Below the pieces are notes generated by a model, which did no database searches, was not told where the DNA came from, and saw only the letters and a program-made list of their open reading frames with translations. Of a stretch of 42,267 nucleotides of DNA, positions 27,009 through 40,631 are shown in pieces. Origin of the DNA: a virus (lineage: Duplodnaviria; Heunggongvirae; Uroviricota; Caudoviricetes); IMG/VR virus record IMGVR_UViG_2541047816_000004, positions 1 to 42,267 of that record; one strand, given 5' to 3'. The position numbers and the translations under genes were made by a program. Position 1 is the first letter of the stretch. Each line of letters starts with the position of its first letter.

Positions 27009-27455
27009 GGAGTTTACTCACATCTGACAAAATCAATATAAACAGCCCCTCCGGAGAGGGGCTGGAGAGTGGCGCTATGTGCCATTGCATGGTGCCGGGT
27101 GCCTCCCGGTGAATTCAGTACCAGCACCTGAATCCGCGATTATCCCATATACCTACTCGCTGATTGCCCCACCGCACAGGGGGATTCACCATGCCAGTTT
27201 CTTTTAACAAACTCCCCGCAAACCAGACAACAGTCAACCGCCTGAATTGTGAAGTATTTAAAAATTTCTCCCGCTAACTGATACCCGGCTAACAGTCTGG
27301 CGTTTTCTTTTTCAGCAACGGGAAAGCAACAACCACCACACCCGCCACCAGCACACCGTCAGCCAGCACTGACATTATCCGGCTGCTGCAATGCCATTCA
27401 CAAAAACAGTAAGCAATCACTTTTTACCGTAACAGGTGATAATCCAGATATGTAT

Positions 27456-27919: not shown

Positions 27920-27996
27920 TGGCGCGCTGTACTGGATTCGAACCAGTGACCGATTGCTTAGAAGGCAATTGCTCTGTCCGGCTGAGCTAACAACGC
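27920..27996 (-). tRNA. tRNA-Arg (anticodon TCT)
   Basis: Hand-folded cloverleaf: 7-bp acceptor, GCTC/GAGC D-stem, ATTGC/GCAAT anticodon stem, loop CTTCTAA, TTCGAAT T-loop, encoded CCA. Confidence 0.8.
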
Positions 27997-28097: not shown

Positions 28098-28173
28098 TGG
28101 TGGCCCTTGCTGGATTTGAACCAGCGACCTGGCGATTATGAGTCGCTCGCTCTCACCACTGAGCTAAAGGGCC
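28098..28173 (-). tRNA. tRNA with CAT anticodon (Ile2-like or Met)
   Basis: GGCCCTTTAGCTCAGTGGTGAGAGCGAGCGACTCATAATCGCC...GGTTCAAATCCAGCAAGGGCCACCA, resembles ileX/ileZ as recalled. Confidence 0.8.
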
Positions 28174-31385: not shown

Positions 31386-31541
31386 TTACTCCTCAGGTTC
31401 GTAAGCTGTGAAGACAGCGACCTCCGTCTGGCCGGTTCGGAGTCGTACCTCGCAGAGGTCTTTCCTCGTTACCAGTGCCGTCACTATGACGGTTAAACAG
31501 ATGACGATCAGGGCGATTAACATCGCCTTTTGCTGCTTCAT
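31386..31541 (-). CDS. hokD: Hok/Gef-family type I toxin (HokD/RelF-like)
   Basis: MKQQKAMLIALIVICLTVIVTALVTRKDLCEVRLRTGQTEVAVFTAYEPEE, 51 aa, near-identical to HokD as recalled. Confidence 0.85.
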   Translation of the reverse strand: MKQQKAMLIALIVICLTVIVTALVTRKDLCEVRLRTGQTEVAVFTAYEPEE

Positions 31542-32089
31542 AGCCTGCTTCTCCTTGCCTTTCGGCACGTAAGAGGCTAACCTACATGTGTCTAGCATGA
31601 AATTGGCCTCAGATTAATGTTAAGCGTCTTGCAGGACGCGTAATGTTAACTGGGGCTTTTCTCTATCTGCCGTTGGTGTTATGCCCGAGGCAGATAGCCT
31701 CAAGCACCCGCAGCCATTCTACTTAACTACCGTTACCTCGCCAATGTGAAATCAGTCAGAAAGGCGATCCATAAGAACAATAGCAAGACAATAAATCGCC
31801 ATTACAGCCGTAATAGCCAGCGCACATTTGAGAACCAGCACCACAACCTCCTGTATTGGACGTACACCAGTCCTGATGAATATGAGGCTGTCTCGTCAGT
31901 GATTCAATACAACTATTGGGTATAGTTTCTCTGATTTTTTCTGTGGAAATGGGGCTCAACCACTAGTCATTTAATACGCAAAGTCCGATACAAGCTAACC
32001 TTCTAGTCCGCTTTGAGCGAAAAGCGGACGTTGGAAGTTTAAAACTCGCGAACTACTCAGCGTCCATTGATGCGTATTGTGTAACGTGA

Positions 32090-32734
32090 TTAACCACAGA
32101 TGATATTGAAACGTTCTCCGGAAATCTTGACCATAATGTCAGACAGTTCGCTGACGGCATGGGCTTCAGATGATCCCAGAGCGTCAGGCTGAACAGCTAT
32201 TACCGAAGCTCCACTTGCCAGCCCTGCTTTTATACCCGCAGATGCATCCTCAAATACCACGCATTCACCAGGCTCAAGGCCCAAAGCCAAAGCTGCTTTG
32301 ATGTAACCCTCGGGACTTGGTTTTCCCGTCATTACATCTTCTGCACACACCATTACTATGGGTAAGGGGAGATTAGCCGCTTTCATCCTGTTTTCTGCAA
32401 GCATTCTGCCTGCAGAAGTGACAAGTGCCCAGCTATCCGGTGGCAGTTTTGATAAGAGTGCAGCGGCCCCTTTTACTTCAGTAACGCCTTCTGTCATGTT
32501 GATTTCAACCTCTTCGAGTGAGGCCGCGATTTTATTGGTTTTCTCACCTGCACCAATAAAATGCGTCAGTGTATCAATCGTTTGCCGCCCGTGTGCGTAA
32601 GCAATCACAGCCTGAGTATCAAGACCGTATTCTGCACAAAAATCTCTCCAGACGCTTTCCACTACGGCTGTTGAATCAACCAGCGTACCGTCCATATCGA
32701 ATAAAAAACCCTTAGCGTTGAATATCATTGCCAT
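32090..32734 (-). CDS. HAD-superfamily hydrolase/phosphatase
   Basis: N-terminal FDMDGTLVDS (DxDGT) motif and C-terminal FEDASAGIKAG. Confidence 0.8.
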   Translation of the reverse strand: MAMIFNAKGFLFDMDGTLVDSTAVVESVWRDFCAEYGLDTQAVIAYAHGRQTIDTLTHFIGAGEKTNKIAASLEEVEINMTEGVTEVKGAAALLSKLPPDSWALVTSAGRMLAENRMKAANLPLPIVMVCAEDVMTGKPSPEGYIKAALALGLEPGECVVFEDASAGIKAGLASGASVIAVQPDALGSSEAHAVSELSDIMVKISGERFNIICG

Positions 32735-32757
32735 TCCTTAATGGTTGCAGAAGAAAG

Positions 32758-33396
32758 TTAATCAAACCATGTTTTTTCATCACCTTTCGCTACTCTCAGG
32801 CTGACAGCAATCTGCTCAGGCACAATTCTTGAAAGCGACAATTCAGGCAGGTCGTTGACATCAAAAAAATCAGCATCGAGTGACTCATGGCTGATTGACA
32901 GGCTGCCACCTACTTCTTCACAGAGAAAAATCAGCTTGTAAACATGCCAGGGTAAAGGCGGATGGCCGTGAAGATTACGATCCCAAACTCCCAATAGTTT
33001 AGTCACTCTGACTTTTAATCCGGTTTCTTCTTCGACTTCTCGACGCACAGCTTCAGAAGGTGTATCTCCAACATCTGCCCATCCGCCAGGAAGACTCCAT
33101 AATCCATCTGCAGCCTCTTTCACCATCAGAATACGATTATTACGCAGGATAAACGCACGCACATCTGTTTTGGGCGTCGCGTAACCCGTTTCCGATACAT
33201 GAAACAAATCATTGCGGCTAATATCAAACTGCGAACTCAGCAGTCCAGCGGCAATTTCACGCAAGGCTTCATAGCGTTCCTTGTCAAAGACGTCTTTTGA
33301 ATAGGTCAGGCCTGACTGCGCGAGGGCCTTTAGTCTCTGGGCAACAAAAATAAGCTTTTCTTGGGTCAACACTTCAGACATGTTTTTCATCTTCAT
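32758..33396 (-). CDS. NUDIX hydrolase with N-terminal extension
   Basis: Nudix box GGWADVGDTPSEAVRREVEEETGL. Confidence 0.8.
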   Translation of the reverse strand: MKMKNMSEVLTQEKLIFVAQRLKALAQSGLTYSKDVFDKERYEALREIAAGLLSSQFDISRNDLFHVSETGYATPKTDVRAFILRNNRILMVKEAADGLWSLPGGWADVGDTPSEAVRREVEEETGLKVRVTKLLGVWDRNLHGHPPLPWHVYKLIFLCEEVGGSLSISHESLDADFFDVNDLPELSLSRIVPEQIAVSLRVAKGDEKTWFD

Positions 33397-33592: not shown

Positions 33593-33994
33593 TTATCCCT
33601 GATAAAATGCCAGTATGCGCTGCATAACTTCACTCATCCGGCACTCGCGACAGATTATGTTTAGGCGACTGTCGTAGCGACGTATTTCTCCATCAGGTAA
33701 CGACCAGATAAGGTCCGGATCAACCACAGCTGTTTTCTTCACCTTTGCCCTCGATAGTTTTTTGCGGGCGTTTTGCCAGTCCTTACGCGCCTGTTCAGAC
33801 GGGAATAACCCGTAGCCGGAGTTGTATACATCGCCACTGGCTACCAGCTCTCTGGCAAGAACGCTCATCAGATATCTAGTCGCACCTGTTTTAGCTTCCA
33901 GTTGCCGTAACGTCTCACGACCGCTCTGGCGCACGAGTTCCACCACCTGCCCTTTAATTTTTTCCCGCTCTTCTTGTGTAAAAACTTTTGCCAC
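33593..33994 (-). CDS. Hypothetical protein, possible winged-helix DNA-binding
   Basis: 133-aa ORF between replication gene and NUDIX cassette. Confidence 0.4.
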   Translation of the reverse strand: MAKVFTQEEREKIKGQVVELVRQSGRETLRQLEAKTGATRYLMSVLARELVASGDVYNSGYGLFPSEQARKDWQNARKKLSRAKVKKTAVVDPDLIWSLPDGEIRRYDSRLNIICRECRMSEVMQRILAFYQG

Positions 33995-34034
33995 AAGTCC
34001 CCCTTAAAATTACCTCATGACCTGAAATCAAAAC

Positions 34035-35000
34035 TTATCCTCTGAAACCAGGCGGAATTTCTGTATCCGGTTCAGAAATATGATTCACACAACGCTGTAC
34101 AGGTGAACGTCCCAGGCGGATGACCAGTTCGTCCCATTTTTCGCGGAGTTTTGACGGGCTCATGATGTTTTTTACCCAGAATGGATCCCGCTGTACCCGA
34201 CCAAACATTTCGCAAATTTGTCTGTGGCTTCTGCCATCCAGCATCCGCATTGTGCGCACGTCATTGGCCCAGGCTGTCCAGTTAGGCTCTTTTGGTCGCA
34301 TGATCTCTCCATCGTCGCTGGCAGCCTGTTCGTAAAGGTTCACGATCCGCCCCCAAATCCACTGCGCACACGCCAAATCCTCCCTGCTACCCCACTGGCG
34401 TTTTTTCACACTAAACACAACCGCGTCGGGGTTCCGGGTTAAAAAATCCTGTTCAGTCGTCTGCGGGTCCGGTTGCGAAGCTTCCGGACGAAAAGTGTTT
34501 TTATTCTCTGTAGTAATCTCTGTTGTATTCTCTGTAAGATCATCAGGCCATTTTGACCCGATGACATTGGGTCGTTTTGAACCAATGGAGCGTTTCATTT
34601 TGACCTCTTCCATCGTGTCATTTTGACCTGATGGAGCGGCGCATTTTGAACCGATGGATTCGTTCAATTTGCCACCATCTAAAAGCTCGCTCCCATAGTT
34701 GATCGTGTAGAAATTGGTCATATCGCGCTTTGATTTATTGAGCTTTTCACAACGCAAAAGCCCCTGCGTTTTCAGACTTGCAAACGCGCGTTTTAACGTT
34801 GACTCTGACCAGAATGGGAACTGTTCCAGCCATTGTTCCGTTGTGTTATAAATCCAGCGAACACCATCACATTCCATACCGGAGTTGGTATCTCTCAACC
34901 AGTAGTGCAGTTGTTGCAAAACAATGGCTTCGTTTAAGCCGATTTTCATTGCCAGCTGCGTGTTTATAACCAGTGGGCGTTCAGCAAAAAGAAGACTCAT
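34035..35000 (-). CDS. Replication initiator (O-like replisome-organiser N-terminus, iteron-encoded linker, DnaT-like C-terminus)
   Basis: N-terminal LVINTQLAMKIGLNEAIVLQQLHYW; internal IGSK repeats; C-terminal ...HISEPDTEIPPGFRG resembles DnaT C-terminus as recalled. Confidence 0.7.
   Translation of the reverse strand: MSLLFAERPLVINTQLAMKIGLNEAIVLQQLHYWLRDTNSGMECDGVRWIYNTTEQWLEQFPFWSESTLKRAFASLKTQGLLRCEKLNKSKRDMTNFYTINYGSELLDGGKLNESIGSKCAAPSGQNDTMEEVKMKRSIGSKRPNVIGSKWPDDLTENTTEITTENKNTFRPEASQPDPQTTEQDFLTRNPDAVVFSVKKRQWGSREDLACAQWIWGRIVNLYEQAASDDGEIMRPKEPNWTAWANDVRTMRMLDGRSHRQICEMFGRVQRDPFWVKNIMSPSKLREKWDELVIRLGRSPVQRCVNHISEPDTEIPPGFRG
34549..34685. repeat. Origin iterons (5-6 copies of a ~20-bp ATTTTGA(A/C)C-NGATGGA unit) with adjacent AT-rich region
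   Basis: Direct repeats read from the sequence inside the initiator gene, followed by AT-rich 34495-34545. Confidence 0.7.
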
Positions 35001-35490
35001 AATTCCATCCAGCTTTTTGTTGGTATTGCTGTCGATACGCAAGCTTGAAAGCAATTGCTTTTTCTATAAGTTCGTCAGTTTCACGATCTACAACGGCAGG
35101 ATCTGCAAAAAGCAGTCCAGATTCCACCACATCGCCATATTCTTTATTTAACCCGGCGATCATGTACGTAATACTTTTTTCACGATACAACCTGAAATCA
35201 CTAATCCGGATAGCCTCCATAATTGCAGGCACTAGCGCTGTGAACTTTTCACGCTTATCCCTGGTGTCGATAGCCTTCCAGCGTTCGAATATCTTCACTC
35301 GATTAACGCTAAGCGCTCGCTGATCAACCGCGCCACCTTCATATGTGACACGCTGAACATCGATGTTCGGGCGCTCTTTCAAAGCCCAGAATGCTTCAGT
35401 GATTAATATCGTCGCCTGCTCCTGTGTCATTCCTGGTCGACATATCCAGGCATCCAGAGCCTCACGAGCCTGTTCAGGAGTGATTTTCAT
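34981..35490 (-). CDS. Hypothetical protein in the cII-equivalent position
   Basis: 169-aa ORF immediately downstream of the Cro-like gene. Confidence 0.45.
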   Translation of the reverse strand: MKITPEQAREALDAWICRPGMTQEQATILITEAFWALKERPNIDVQRVTYEGGAVDQRALSVNRVKIFERWKAIDTRDKREKFTALVPAIMEAIRISDFRLYREKSITYMIAGLNKEYGDVVESGLLFADPAVVDRETDELIEKAIAFKLAYRQQYQQKAGWNYESSFC

Positions 35491-35701
35491 TGTTCAACCG
35501 CCCCGTCCGCTTCGTCTTACGATATTCGTCATAAACTTTGGGATCATACTGAAGCTCCCCGCCAGATGCCTCCTGTAGACGCATCGCGCGACCTTCAGGA
35601 ACCAGTATCCCCCAGGCAGCAACACTTGCCAGTCTCACTCCTGCGGCATTGGCAAGCTTTGTTTTGCTGCCAAAAAAAGTAATTGCGTCAACTTTAAGCA
35701 T
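35474..35701 (-). CDS. dicC: DicC-like Cro-type HTH regulator
   Basis: FGSKTKLANAAGVRLASVAAWG...EGRAMRLQEASGGELQYDPKVYDEYRKTKR resembles DicC as recalled; divergent from the repressor. Confidence 0.75.
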   Translation of the reverse strand: MLKVDAITFFGSKTKLANAAGVRLASVAAWGILVPEGRAMRLQEASGGELQYDPKVYDEYRKTKRTGRLNNENHS

Positions 35702-35714
35702 CAAAGCCCCCTCT

Positions 35715-35781: not shown

Positions 35782-36189
35782 ATGGATACAAGAACCCTAG
35801 GCCAGCGAGTTCTGGCGCGACGAAAAGAATTACGCTTAACACAACGAGAAGCTGCGCGCCTCGCTGGAGTTGCTCACGTCACAATTTCACAATGGGAAAG
35901 AGACGAAACCCAGCCAGTCGGAAAACGATTGTTTGCTTTAGCGGATGCTCTGAAGTGCTCACCTACATGGCTAATGTTTGGTGATGAAGACAAGGCACCA
36001 GTGCCTGCACAAGAACTTCATGTGGAAACAGAGCTAACTCCCAACCACAAAGAATTGATCGAATTATTCGATGCTCTTCCATCTTCCGAGCAGGAAGCCT
36101 TGCTGTCTGAAATGCGCGCAAGAGTAGAAAACTTCAACAAACTCTTCGAAGAAATGCTTAAAGCGCGTAAAAATAAATCAATAAAATAA
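35782..36189 (+). CDS. dicA: DicA-like XRE-family HTH repressor (no peptidase domain)
   Basis: LRLTQREAARLAGVAHVTISQWERDETQP HTH; C-terminal ...RARVENFNKLFEEMLKARKN resembles DicA as recalled. Confidence 0.8.
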   Translation: MDTRTLGQRVLARRKELRLTQREAARLAGVAHVTISQWERDETQPVGKRLFALADALKCSPTWLMFGDEDKAPVPAQELHVETELTPNHKELIELFDALPSSEQEALLSEMRARVENFNKLFEEMLKARKNKSIK

Positions 36190-37579: not shown

Positions 37580-37632
37580 TTTCTGGTGACGTTTGGCGGT
37601 ATCAGTTTTACTCCGTGACTGCTCTGCCGCCC
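37580..37632 (+). ncRNA. dicF: DicF small RNA
   Basis: tttctggtgacgtttggcggtatcagttttactccgtgactgctctgccgccc followed by TTTTT, matching the 53-nt DicF as recalled. Confidence 0.75.
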
Positions 37633-38156: not shown

Positions 38157-40631
38157 ATGAGTAAAGTCTTTATTTGCGCCGCCATTCCTGACGAACAGGC
38201 AATTAAGGAAGAAGGTGCAGTTGCTGTAGCCACTGCCATCGAAGCTGGTGACGAACGCCGCGCCCGAGCCAAATTTACCTGGCAATTCCTGGAGCAATAT
38301 CCGGCTGCTCAGGACTGTGCTTATAAATTTCTTGTCTGCGAGGATAAACCCGGCATGGCCCGCCCTGCCCTTGATTCCTGGGATACCGAATATATGCAGG
38401 AAAACCGCTGGGATGAGGGATCGTCTTCCTTTGTCCCGGTCGAACCAGAGCCGAATACAGAAATTGTTAACTTTAATCAGTTATCCGACGACAAACAGGC
38501 CGCTGTTCTCGTTAAGTTTGGCGCACATGAAAACGTCACCGTGGATATGGTCATCAACGCAAGCGGGCTTCTTGGCGATGACGACATGATGACCTTTGAC
38601 GGACACCTCGCAGAGGCAATTATCCGGACTAAAGAAATTAACGCCATGTATCCGGAACGTCAGATTGAATACATCAACGATGCCAGACGTGATTTAAAAC
38701 CAACCGCCAAATGGCCCGACGTTCAGGCATATTTTCTCGACCGTAAAAAACGCATGGAAAAGGAGCGCAAAGAAGGTGGTGCATATGCTTCTGTTGTTGA
38801 TCTTGCCCGTGCCAGCGTCAACCGGCAGAACACTGAAAACTCAGTAGCAAAAATCAACCCTGTCACTACTGCCATTCGTCGCGAATACAAGCAGACATGG
38901 AAAACACTGGATGATGAACTGGCCTATGCTCTGTGGCCTGGGGACATTGATGCCGGAAACATTGACGGCAGCATCCATCGCTGGGCAAAAAATGAAGTTA
39001 TCGACAACGACCGCGAAGACTGGAAGCGTATCTCGGCATCAATGCGCAAACAGCCTGATGCCCTTCGCTACGACCGCCAGACTATTTTTGGCCTTGTCCG
39101 TGAACGTCCGATCGACATTCACAAAGACCCTGTGGCACTGAACAAATACATTACTGAATACCTGACTACAAAGGGCGTGTTTGAAGATGAAGGAACAAAT
39201 CAGAGCGCAACTGATACTCTCTCGTCGCCAGTACCAGAAACTGATGCAGTGGAAACGGCAATTCCGGACAACGAAAAAACCGAATGCAAAGTGGAAATCG
39301 AACCATCTGTAGAGCGTGAGGGGCCGTTCTACTTCCTCTTCACCGACAAGGATGGCGAAAAATACGGTCGCGCAAACAAACTTTCTGGTCTGGATAAGGC
39401 ACTGGCTGCCGGGGCTACTGAAATCACGAAAGAAGAATATTTCGCCCGCAAAAACGGTACATACTCAGGTTCACAACAAAATACTGGTGCATCTGACACG
39501 ACCGCACAACCAGAGCCGGTAAAAGTTACCGCTGACGAAGTAAACAAAATTATGCAGGCAGCCAATATCAGCCAGCCTGACGCCAATCAGCTGCTTGCAG
39601 TATCACGTGGTGAATTTGTTGCAGGGATTAGCGACCCGAACGATCCGAAATGGGTGAAGGGGATTGAAACCCGCGATTCTGTGAACCAGAACCAGCAAGA
39701 AACGGAACAGAACGACCAGAAAGCGGAACAAAACAGCCCAAATGCGTTACAAAACGAGCCAGAAACGAAACAACCTGAGCCAGTAGCGCAACAGGAAGCG
39801 GAAAAAGTCTGCACCGCCTGTGGTCAGACCGGCGGCGGCAACTGCCCTGATTGTGGTGCGGTGATGGGCGACGCAACATACCAGGAAACATTCGATGAAG
39901 AGAATCAGGCTGAAGTTCAGGAAAATGATCCGGAGGAAATGGAAGGCGCTGAACATCCACACAAGGAGAATGCTGGCAGCGCTCAGGACCACGCCAGCGA
40001 TAATGAAACTGGCGAGACGGCAGATTCCTTAATTGCGGTGAACGGTCATCACGTTATCACATCCACCAGCAGAGTGTGGCACCATCTGATGATCGACCTT
40101 GAAACGATGGGAACAAATCCTGATGCGCCAATCAACTCTATTGGCGGTAAATTCTTTGATCCCGAAACCGGAGAGATGGGGCCGGAATTTAGCAAGACCA
40201 TCGATCTGGATACTGCTGGCGGAGTCATTGATCGTGACGTCATTAAATGGTGGCTTAAGCAATCACGCGAGGCGCAATCTGCCATTCTGACCGATGAAAT
40301 CCCGTTAGATGATGCACTACTGCAATTGCGGGAATTTATCGACGAAAACTCCGGTGAATTTTTTGTTCAGGTCTGGGGAAATGGAGCCAACTTCGACAAC
40401 GTGATTTTACGCCGTTCATACGAACGGCAGGGGATCCCCTGCCCGTGGCGTTATTGCAACGATCGCGATGTGCGCACAATCGTTGAGCTGGGAAAAACCC
40501 TGAACTTCGATGCCAGAACGGATATTCCATTCGACGGTGAGCGCCACAATGCACTTGATGACGCCCGTTACCAGGCAAAATACGTTTCAGCTATCTGGCA
40601 AAAACTGATCCCGAGTCAGGCTGATTTTTAA
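38157..40631 (+). CDS. RecE-like protein with C-terminal DEDDh (DnaQ-like) 3'-5' exonuclease domain
   Basis: SRGEFVAGISDPNDPKWVKGIETRD resembles RecE as recalled; C-terminal MIDLETMG, GNGANFDN, HNALDDA exonuclease motifs. Confidence 0.65.
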   Translation: MSKVFICAAIPDEQAIKEEGAVAVATAIEAGDERRARAKFTWQFLEQYPAAQDCAYKFLVCEDKPGMARPALDSWDTEYMQENRWDEGSSSFVPVEPEPNTEIVNFNQLSDDKQAAVLVKFGAHENVTVDMVINASGLLGDDDMMTFDGHLAEAIIRTKEINAMYPERQIEYINDARRDLKPTAKWPDVQAYFLDRKKRMEKERKEGGAYASVVDLARASVNRQNTENSVAKINPVTTAIRREYKQTWKTLDDELAYALWPGDIDAGNIDGSIHRWAKNEVIDNDREDWKRISASMRKQPDALRYDRQTIFGLVRERPIDIHKDPVALNKYITEYLTTKGVFEDEGTNQSATDTLSSPVPETDAVETAIPDNEKTECKVEIEPSVEREGPFYFLFTDKDGEKYGRANKLSGLDKALAAGATEITKEEYFARKNGTYSGSQQNTGASDTTAQPEPVKVTADEVNKIMQAANISQPDANQLLAVSRGEFVAGISDPNDPKWVKGIETRDSVNQNQQETEQNDQKAEQNSPNALQNEPETKQPEPVAQQEAEKVCTACGQTGGGNCPDCGAVMGDATYQETFDEENQAEVQENDPEEMEGAEHPHKENAGSAQDHASDNETGETADSLIAVNGHHVITSTSRVWHHLMIDLETMGTNPDAPINSIGGKFFDPETGEMGPEFSKTIDLDTAGGVIDRDVIKWWLKQSREAQSAILTDEIPLDDALLQLREFIDENSGEFFVQVWGNGANFDNVILRRSYERQGIPCPWRYCNDRDVRTIVELGKTLNFDARTDIPFDGERHNALDDARYQAKYVSAIWQKLIPSQADF

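Follow-up and report, generated by a model that had tools for sequence, protein, structure and literature searches.

The sequence analysed here, hereafter the window, is the complete 42,267-nucleotide stretch of IMG/VR virus record IMGVR_UViG_2541047816_000004 (Duplodnaviria; Heunggongvirae; Uroviricota; Caudoviricetes), a lambdoid Escherichia coli prophage inserted beside rspB, the Qin site. Our subject is its replication initiator gene (34035–35000, minus strand; ATG at 35000, TAA at 34035–34037), and in particular the C-terminus of the encoded 321-amino-acid protein, ...VNHISEPDTEIPPGFRG, which may serve to attract a helicase loader of the DnaC type. The gene was recognised as an open reading frame (ORF), by PGAP annotation and by a full-length match to PHROG 391, ‘replication initiation O-like’ (E 4.2e-92; residues 17–321 against profile positions 11–298 of 298), while a Pfam search of the initiator gave no family match, even at E values up to 10. 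A longer ORF starting with TTG at 35054 was considered and set aside, as PGAP and the deposited phage annotations all take the ATG at 35000. A 99.5%-identical copy of the prophage resides in the chromosome of E. coli strain CU37RT-2, where PGAP names the initiator ‘phage replication protein O’. The initiator module recurs at 96–97% identity in the deposited phages mEp460_ev081 (under the RAST name ‘Primosomal protein I’), PhiR42_1 and HannyBb, and deposited phages and E. coli genomes commonly contain the initiator itself, at 96–99% identity. All three of these names (PHROG, PGAP and RAST) are existing catalogue entries for the gene family, and the gene by itself is an ordinary, common lambdoid initiator.

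The organization of the protein was predicted with an AlphaFold2 monomer model built from 108 homologues (mean predicted local distance difference test score, pLDDT, of 78). Residues ∼10–110 (34671–34973, minus strand) are modelled as a winged-helix domain of the DnaD-N/RepA_N kind, presumably the part that binds the iterons described below. Neither Pfam Phage_rep_O nor HTH_36 matched this domain at E values up to 10 (some relatives carry HTH_36), and lambda O residues 1–134 gave no tblastn alignment in the window. There follows a linker predicted to be disordered (residues ∼112–173; 34482–34667, minus strand; pLDDT 36–59, no secondary structure), which is encoded by the iterons and by A+T-rich DNA, and then a helical C-domain (residues ∼175–298; 34107–34478, minus strand; pLDDT >90). 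Lambda O residues 135–270 aligned by tblastn with window positions 34562–34119 at 34% identity over 148 amino acids (E 1.4e-22), and the C-domain alignment has 11 invariant columns. In lambda O this domain is the part to which contact with the P protein is classically assigned. A preliminary description of this DNA had called the protein an O-like initiator, and both the PHROG match and this homology bear it out. The protein closes with a C-terminal tail of the DnaT type (residues 302–321, QRCVNHISEPDTEIPPGFRG; 34038–34097, minus strand), a short linear motif that we propose to be a docking peptide for DnaC-type loaders; residues 300–321 are disordered in the monomer model, which does not place the tail against the other domains of the protein.

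The putative origin lies inside the initiator coding sequence, as the preliminary description had stated, between the segments for the N- and C-domains. Six units of 23–24 bp occupy positions 34541–34679; the core TTTTGAMC is present in five of them (at 34551, 34575, 34598, 34621 and 34644), each unit is partly palindromic (CATC...GATG), and a repeat search found the repeats as families D1, D2 and I1. An 18-mer consensus of these iterons, allowing up to 3 mismatches, had four matches, all within the initiator gene, against 0.02 expected from shuffles. In relatives with the same N-domain the core motif is found at an unchanged position, and the spacing is similar to that of the lambda iterons, which are 20–24 bp apart. 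Adjoining the iterons is a moderately A+T-rich stretch (34495–34540; GC 0.37–0.40 versus 0.45–0.58 in the flanks) that contains two copies of TTnTATTCTCTGTA (repeat family D4) and lies downstream of the iterons along the direction of transcription. The A+T-rich region of lambda is likewise downstream of its iterons. From this layout we infer that the initiator binds the iterons and that the A+T-rich stretch is a candidate unwinding element.

The tail matches residues 160–179 of E. coli DnaT (primosomal protein I) at 14 of 20 positions (70%; pairwise BLASTP, E 1e-7, with DnaT from the K-12 record), in agreement with the preliminary description, which had likened the C-terminus to that of DnaT. 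No similarity between the initiator and E. coli DnaT was found by BLASTP beyond the tail, in a comparison where the acidic linker was not compared separately. Against the DnaT chains in the Protein Data Bank (2ru8, 6aep and 9zbt) phmmer aligned residues 301–321 only, and the NCBIfam DnaT model NF002770 aligned residues 302–321 only, with 16.3 bits against a cut-off of 201. Pfam PF17948, carried by all listed DnaT orthologues, had no match in the initiator, and no homology to the DnaT C-domain was detected in the initiator C-domain. No counterpart was detected either of the DnaT three-helix bundle (84–153), which binds single-stranded DNA and PriA, and the N-terminal oligomerisation domain of DnaT is absent, a winged-helix initiator domain standing in its place. 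The pattern PD..IP.GFRG is nearly invariant in 107 DnaT orthologues, and the initiator has a terminal peptide of this PDxxIPxGFRG-COOH type. The domain searches thus recover DnaT in the tail but no DnaT C-domain; judged from these alignments, what the initiator has in common with DnaT comes down to a short disordered tail.

The preliminary description had also noted that no P-, DnaC- or DnaB-like gene accompanies the initiator. This agrees with the PGAP annotation, which names no helicase or helicase loader from the integrase to Q, and with tblastn searches of the whole window using E. coli DnaC, a phage DnaC-like protein, lambda P and DnaB, for which the best E value was 0.4. No DnaC, P or DnaB homologue was found in the complete, near-identical HannyBb genome (45 kb), which has the same module, and no loader or helicase in the early region of mEp460_ev081; PhiR42_1 shares the loader-less arrangement. 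A phage without a helicase or loader gene must therefore use host factors. Between the initiator stop codon and the next gene, which is ren-like, only 40 nt remain (33995–34034). In relatives the same slot holds a lambda P gene (contig L204) or a dnaC-like gene with a DUF1627 gene (L021 and L210). The next gene itself (33593–33994, minus strand) encodes a DUF977/Ren-like protein (Pfam DUF977, E 6e-27; PHROG 142, ‘Ren-like exclusion protein’) and takes the position of ren in the lambda order O-P-ren. As a separate observation, a DUF1627 protein of ∼240–260 amino acids is usually encoded next after the dnaC-like gene (L015, L021, L210, L293, L295 and others), and in some loader-less lineages the DUF1627 gene directly follows the initiator.

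The type of tail was compared with the type of loader gene downstream across related loci. The scans were dominated by Enterobacterales and rich in E. coli prophages, and the figures given here and below refer to the matches listed. A search with the C-domain alignment gave only relatives of at least 90% identity, and the diversity came from exact-protein look-ups and from a scan seeded on lambda P. Among all fetched loci there were at least 286 ORFs ending in the GFRG-type tail, of which 165 were followed by a DnaC-like gene and 109 by no loader, 12 lay near a contig end, and none was followed by P. The DnaC-like genes start within a few bases of the stop codon of the tailed ORF. For the initiator family itself, viral loci with enough downstream sequence were divided between those with a dnaC-like gene (29) and those without a loader (25); these dnaC-like genes are 39–51% identical to E. 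coli DnaC and start ∼6 nt past the stop codon. The view of a single-gene replication module consequently holds for this prophage but not as a fixed property, as a dnaC-like gene follows near-identical initiators in about half of the listed contigs. In a second family with the same tail on a different C-domain the corresponding listed numbers were 11 and 30.

The complementary sample consisted of 80 diverse loci seeded on lambda-P-type loaders (34–69% identity; L211–L290), in which 76 upstream initiators could be scored. All 76 end in HWNxxEAWENTL or DxxNTDWIxGVxL, and among these loci none has the GFRG tail. The two tryptophan (Trp) tail subtypes track two P subfamilies, and each subtype occurs on more than one kind of C-domain. 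Individual relatives followed the same pattern. A protein 73% identical to the initiator and in the same cI-cro-ydaT context (P0034) ends in ...GDWNSADGWED and is followed by Phage_lambda_P, and P0141 and P0260 likewise have Trp tails followed by lambda-P genes. P0130 ends in ...VPPGFRG and is followed by an IstB/DnaC-like gene, and no loader follows P0045, P0038, P0234, P0126 and P0133, the tails of which are of the GFRG type. When grouped into clusters at 70% identity, 7 clusters had the GFRG tail, none of them with P and 4 mixing dnaC-bearing and loader-less members, and 22 clusters had Trp tails, all with P. The separation of tail type and loader type was thus strict and complete in both directions. 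Since the Trp-tail subtypes co-vary with the P subfamilies, this argues that the tails may read the loader rather than the host helicase, which is constant.

A corresponding arrangement was found in bacterial chromosomes. Among the matches listed from species-representative genomes, dnaT was followed by dnaC within 2–6 nt in all 74 cases (the gap in E. coli K-12 is 2 nt), and of the other proteins with the GFRG tail, which have varied bodies, 27 preceded a DnaC-like gene and 4 did not. YdaU of the Rac prophage of E. coli K-12 ends in ...LPDSAIPPGFRG, and the dnaC-like ydaV starts 6 nt later. The few listed matches outside Enterobacterales were none of them C-termini.

The tail also behaves as a mosaic unit. 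When viral contigs were scanned for E-P-D-x-x-I-P-P-G-F-R-G-stop, it turned up on three kinds of protein: the initiator family, a second family in which the pre-tail C-domain differs and two or more N-domains occur, and a family of 271 amino acids with a genuine DnaT-type C-domain. Identical 20-residue tails occur with three or more different pre-tail domains and with several N-domains. At the DNA level, homology to the sister phage with lambda P (L204; 80% identity) covers 35600 to 34110 and ends just before the tail codons, and the DNA of an initiator of another class, ‘type B’, matches the window only at 34097–34026 and in the DUF977 gene. For a sister with the same initiator and a dnaC-like gene (L021) the match is broken only between 34039 and 33997, where L021 has an insert of 1.56 kb (the dnaC-like and DUF1627 genes). 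The breakpoints of homology to sister phages coincide with the edges of the tail codons.

Two further observations concern the bodies that carry the tail. The 271-residue proteins (L040, L050, L056, L071, L081 and L111) consist of an unrelated N-domain, the genuine DnaT-type C-domain and the tail (WQQKLARS...EPDSEIPPGFRG) and look like relatives of the C-terminal half of DnaT; in these six contigs the next gene is not dnaC-like, and a RuvC-like or small nuclease-like ORF is found there instead. When the pre-tail regions of all fetched loci were grouped by single-linkage clustering, the DnaT orthologues and the type-B phage initiators fell into one class, which hints that their C-domains may be distantly related.

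Taking these comparisons together, we lean towards the reading that the protein is a lambda-O-type initiator whose tail recruits DnaC-type loaders, here the DnaB–DnaC complex of the host. Transcription from the cro promoter would pass through ydaT and the initiator gene, and initiator dimers would bind the five to six partly palindromic iterons within that gene and open the neighbouring A+T-richer DNA, by analogy with lambda O. The disordered C-terminal peptide would then bring in a DnaC-type loader carrying DnaB. In phages with a dnaC-like gene of their own, its product would be the likely partner of the tail. Where the slot is empty, as at 33995–34034, the partner would be the host DnaB–DnaC, from which DnaC would load DnaB onto the opened A+T-rich DNA; the tail might instead touch DnaB inside that complex. 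The dnaC-like gene would have been lost, or never present, in this prophage, HannyBb, mEp460_ev081 and PhiR42_1. That a phage dnaC may be dispensable because the host has one fits both the presence or absence of dnaC behind near-identical initiators and the existence of complete loader-less genomes. More tentatively, and with somewhat less than even confidence, we suggest that DnaC-type loaders are docked by a portable motif, [DE]xx[IV]PxGFRG-COOH, shared by several unrelated phage initiators, YdaU and DnaT, and that the Trp-rich tails play the same part for lambda-P-type loaders, with the consequences for DnaT and for the origin of dnaT-dnaC that are set out at the end.

Several points weigh against this interpretation. 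The main caveat is that the tail codons adjoin the loader gene, so that mosaic linkage could give some of the co-variation without any contact; given the loader-less cases, the tail does persist without an adjacent dnaC. Further, the locus counts are not independent, because sampling was limited to listed matches and was heavy in Enterobacterales prophages. The basis for a contact of the tail with DnaC (or DnaB–DnaC), and for the use of host DnaC, is purely comparative, and the A+T richness of the candidate unwinding element is only moderate. A possible exception to the rule is the DopC protein of Cellvibrionales, which is reported to have a ‘DnaT C-ter motif’ together with DopE, a partner of the P-like kind (PMC5509034). 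As for DnaT itself, Ducos et al. (2026) favour its N-domain as the recruiter of DnaB/DnaC, no DnaT–DnaC interaction is documented (PMC5778457), and removal of the tail converts DnaT from trimer to dimer according to the accounts of Szymanski (2013) given in PMC5314882 and PMC5778457, so the tail may self-associate.

Two other functions of the tail were weighed. The preliminary description had proposed that the phage recruits the host primosome through a DnaT-mimicking domain, in other words that the DnaT-like end imitates DnaT in the restart primosome and that the initiator engages host PriA/PriB, and through them DnaB–DnaC, at the phage origin. The need for host factors stands, and the tail is indeed common to the initiator and to a component of the preprimosome in which its role is structurally unassigned; the phage linker is moreover acidic, like the DnaT linker that binds PriB. 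Yet DnaT contacts PriA through the 84–153 three-helix bundle and PriB through the acidic linker around D66/D70 (PMC13377028), and the bundle is undetectable in the initiator, for which the BLASTP comparison described above found nothing of DnaT beyond the tail. The text of the preprimosome paper names no PriA-contacting DnaT residues, and according to its Methods only 84–153 (4OU7) was fitted; the tail was left unmodelled, and the authors state that DnaB/DnaC recruitment ‘remains unknown’ (PMC13377028). A PriA/PriB route also does not predict that the tail should lie beside dnaC-like genes on many unrelated phage proteins, and never with P, so the part of the proposal that concerns PriA and PriB gives way to the tracking of DnaC-type loaders, and we consider it unlikely. 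Alternatively, the tail could be a self-association element for oligomerisation at the origin, in which case the helicase would be recruited by the C-domain of the lambda O type or by some other surface. In the work of Szymanski (2013), as summarised in PMC5778457 and PMC5314882, DnaT without its last 18 residues assembles into dimers and not trimers, and the tail is conserved in DnaT orthologues. But a generic oligomerisation peptide should not be missing from all P-paired initiators (0 of 76), nor should it sit just upstream of dnaC-like genes on unrelated bodies, and the model, albeit of a monomer, shows the tail free of the protein's own domains; we judge this explanation quite unlikely.

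The remaining alternatives concern the empty slot rather than the tail. The module might be a defective remnant from which the dnaC-like gene was deleted, leaving a prophage unable to replicate alone, since sister contigs carry dnaC-like and DUF1627 genes at exactly the junction of the initiator and ren-like genes, and the near-identical CU37RT-2 prophage has a frameshifted tape-measure gene. This is very improbable in view of the loader-less arrangement in deposited complete phage genomes (HannyBb, and also mEp460_ev081 and PhiR42_1) and in 109 of the 286 listed tail-bearing loci, divergent lineages included. We give equally little credence to the idea that the DUF977/Ren-like protein is an unrecognised helicase loader. 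Its gene is always close to the initiator, and its N-terminus looks DNA-binding-like by eye, although no tool assigned such a domain; but it matches a Ren-like family, is not directly downstream of the initiator in other loader-less GFRG lineages, and cannot be taken to replace a loader because it also occurs downstream in relatives that have lambda P (L204) or a DnaC-like loader (L210 and L021). It was rejected as a hidden loader on the grounds that it is a Ren homologue present where loaders exist. The reading in which the GFRG tail calls on a DnaC-type loader is the one that we retain.

The system is best placed by comparison with known ones. With phage lambda it shares an iteron array that is internal to the initiator gene and similarly spaced, the succession of an N-terminal DNA-binding domain, a linker and a homologous C-domain, and the gene order cro, cII-like, O, loader slot, ren-like. 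It differs in an N-domain that is not detectably that of lambda O, in having no P gene, and in the tail, which is ...LDLTNTDWIYGVDL in lambda O and ...ISEPDTEIPPGFRG in the prophage initiator. The Rac ydaS-ydaT-ydaU-ydaV cluster resembles it in the Cro/YdaS-like and YdaT-like genes upstream and in the tail of YdaU, but the body of YdaU is DUF1376 rather than a lambda-O-type C-domain, and Rac has the DnaC-like ydaV that is missing here. Compared with E. coli DnaT, with which the initiator shares its terminal ∼20 residues, the prophage protein is an origin-binding initiator and DnaT a restart factor; and while sister phages resemble the dnaT-dnaC operon in that a dnaC homologue begins only a few bases after the tail-bearing gene, no dnaC follows the initiator in this prophage. 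Loader-less phage modules of the ‘initiator only’ kind, reportedly classified by Weigel and Seitz in FEMS Microbiol Rev in 2006, are likewise made up of a single initiator gene and rely on host helicase and loader, as the prophage would.

A combination of an O-like N-terminal helix-turn-helix with a DnaT C-terminal element has already been noted in silico for DopC of Cellvibrionales and Oceanospirillales (Brezellec et al. 2017, PMC5509034), where the HHpred match is to the DnaT C-domain (2ru8). DopC differs in being a chromosomal resident that lacks iterons and is paired with the lambda-P-like DopE (PMC5509034), whereas the prophage initiator has iterons and no P-like gene. A phage origin of dnaC has been argued before (PMC5109545, with a citation of Wrobel & Wegrzyn 2002). 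The searchable literature held no report of a tail–loader rule, of docking between the DnaT tail and DnaC or of a peptide tied to host-loader recruitment, and nothing on the replication of mEp460. The initiator is accordingly a member of a known family, and the new part, namely the tail–loader rule and the docking of DnaC by the DnaT tail, is what we infer, and only infer, from the sequence comparisons.

The initiator gene stands in the early region of the prophage. Upstream of it in the same operon lies a YdaT/CII-like gene (34981–35490, minus strand; Pfam YdaT_toxin; PHROG 163, ‘CII-like transcriptional activator’), the end of which overlaps the initiator start by 20 nt, preceded by a Cro-like gene (35474–35704, minus strand; Pfam P22_Cro and PGAP) that is the first of the rightward early operon reading through the origin. 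A CI-type repressor gene (35782–36189, plus strand; Pfam HTH_3 and Phage_CI_repr; PGAP) is transcribed divergently. The PGAP order in the CU37RT-2 copy is integrase, excisionase, exonuclease, kil, sieB, CI-type repressor, Cro, YdaT-family (CII-like) and ‘phage replication protein O’, followed by DUF977, NUDIX, HAD, hokD, rem, DUF968, RusA and Q, and then by the lysis, head and tail genes.

Several other features of the window were recorded. In the leftward early region the DicF antisense small RNA (sRNA; Rfam RF00039, 76.7 bits; 37581–37632, plus strand) adjoins a truncated dicB and kil, as in Qin/Rac-type prophages. An 824-amino-acid ‘exonuclease’ is encoded at 38157–40631 (plus strand); the Pfam families Exonuc_VIII, YdfE and Rv2179c-like (3'-5' exonuclease) are found in its relatives. 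A cargo pair at 32090–33396 (minus strand), flanked by the ren-like gene and hok, encodes a HAD-family hydrolase and a NUDIX hydrolase that has a Nudix_N domain, and mEp460_ev081 and HannyBb have other genes in its place. The replication and Q regions are separated by a type I toxin-antitoxin pair, which consists of a hok-type toxin ORF (PGAP hokD; 31386–31709, minus strand) and its sok antitoxin RNA (RF01794, 118 bits; 31536–31709). The STnc100 sRNA (130 bits; 27034–27223, minus strand), a tRNA-Arg(TCT) gene (27920–27996, minus strand) and a tRNA gene with a CAT anticodon (PGAP: tRNA-Ile; 28098–28173, minus strand) lie downstream of the Q antiterminator.

The locus amounts to a natural experiment, in which three alternatives for the loader slot (lambda P, a dnaC-like gene or an empty slot) occur behind one and the same initiator body and the last 20 residues switch with the type of loader. 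This offers a simple, testable rule for the choice of loader by origin-bound initiators. If the proposed role of the tail is correct, loader-less phages would capture the host DnaB–DnaC complex through it, and the near-invariant tail of DnaT would be the missing link between the PriA-PriB-DnaT preprimosome and DnaB–DnaC. The dnaT-dnaC pair would then be a domesticated phage initiator-loader pair, and the C-terminal tail of DnaT would be a concrete candidate for the delivery of DnaB–DnaC during replication restart in E. coli, a question left by the preprimosome structures of 2026.

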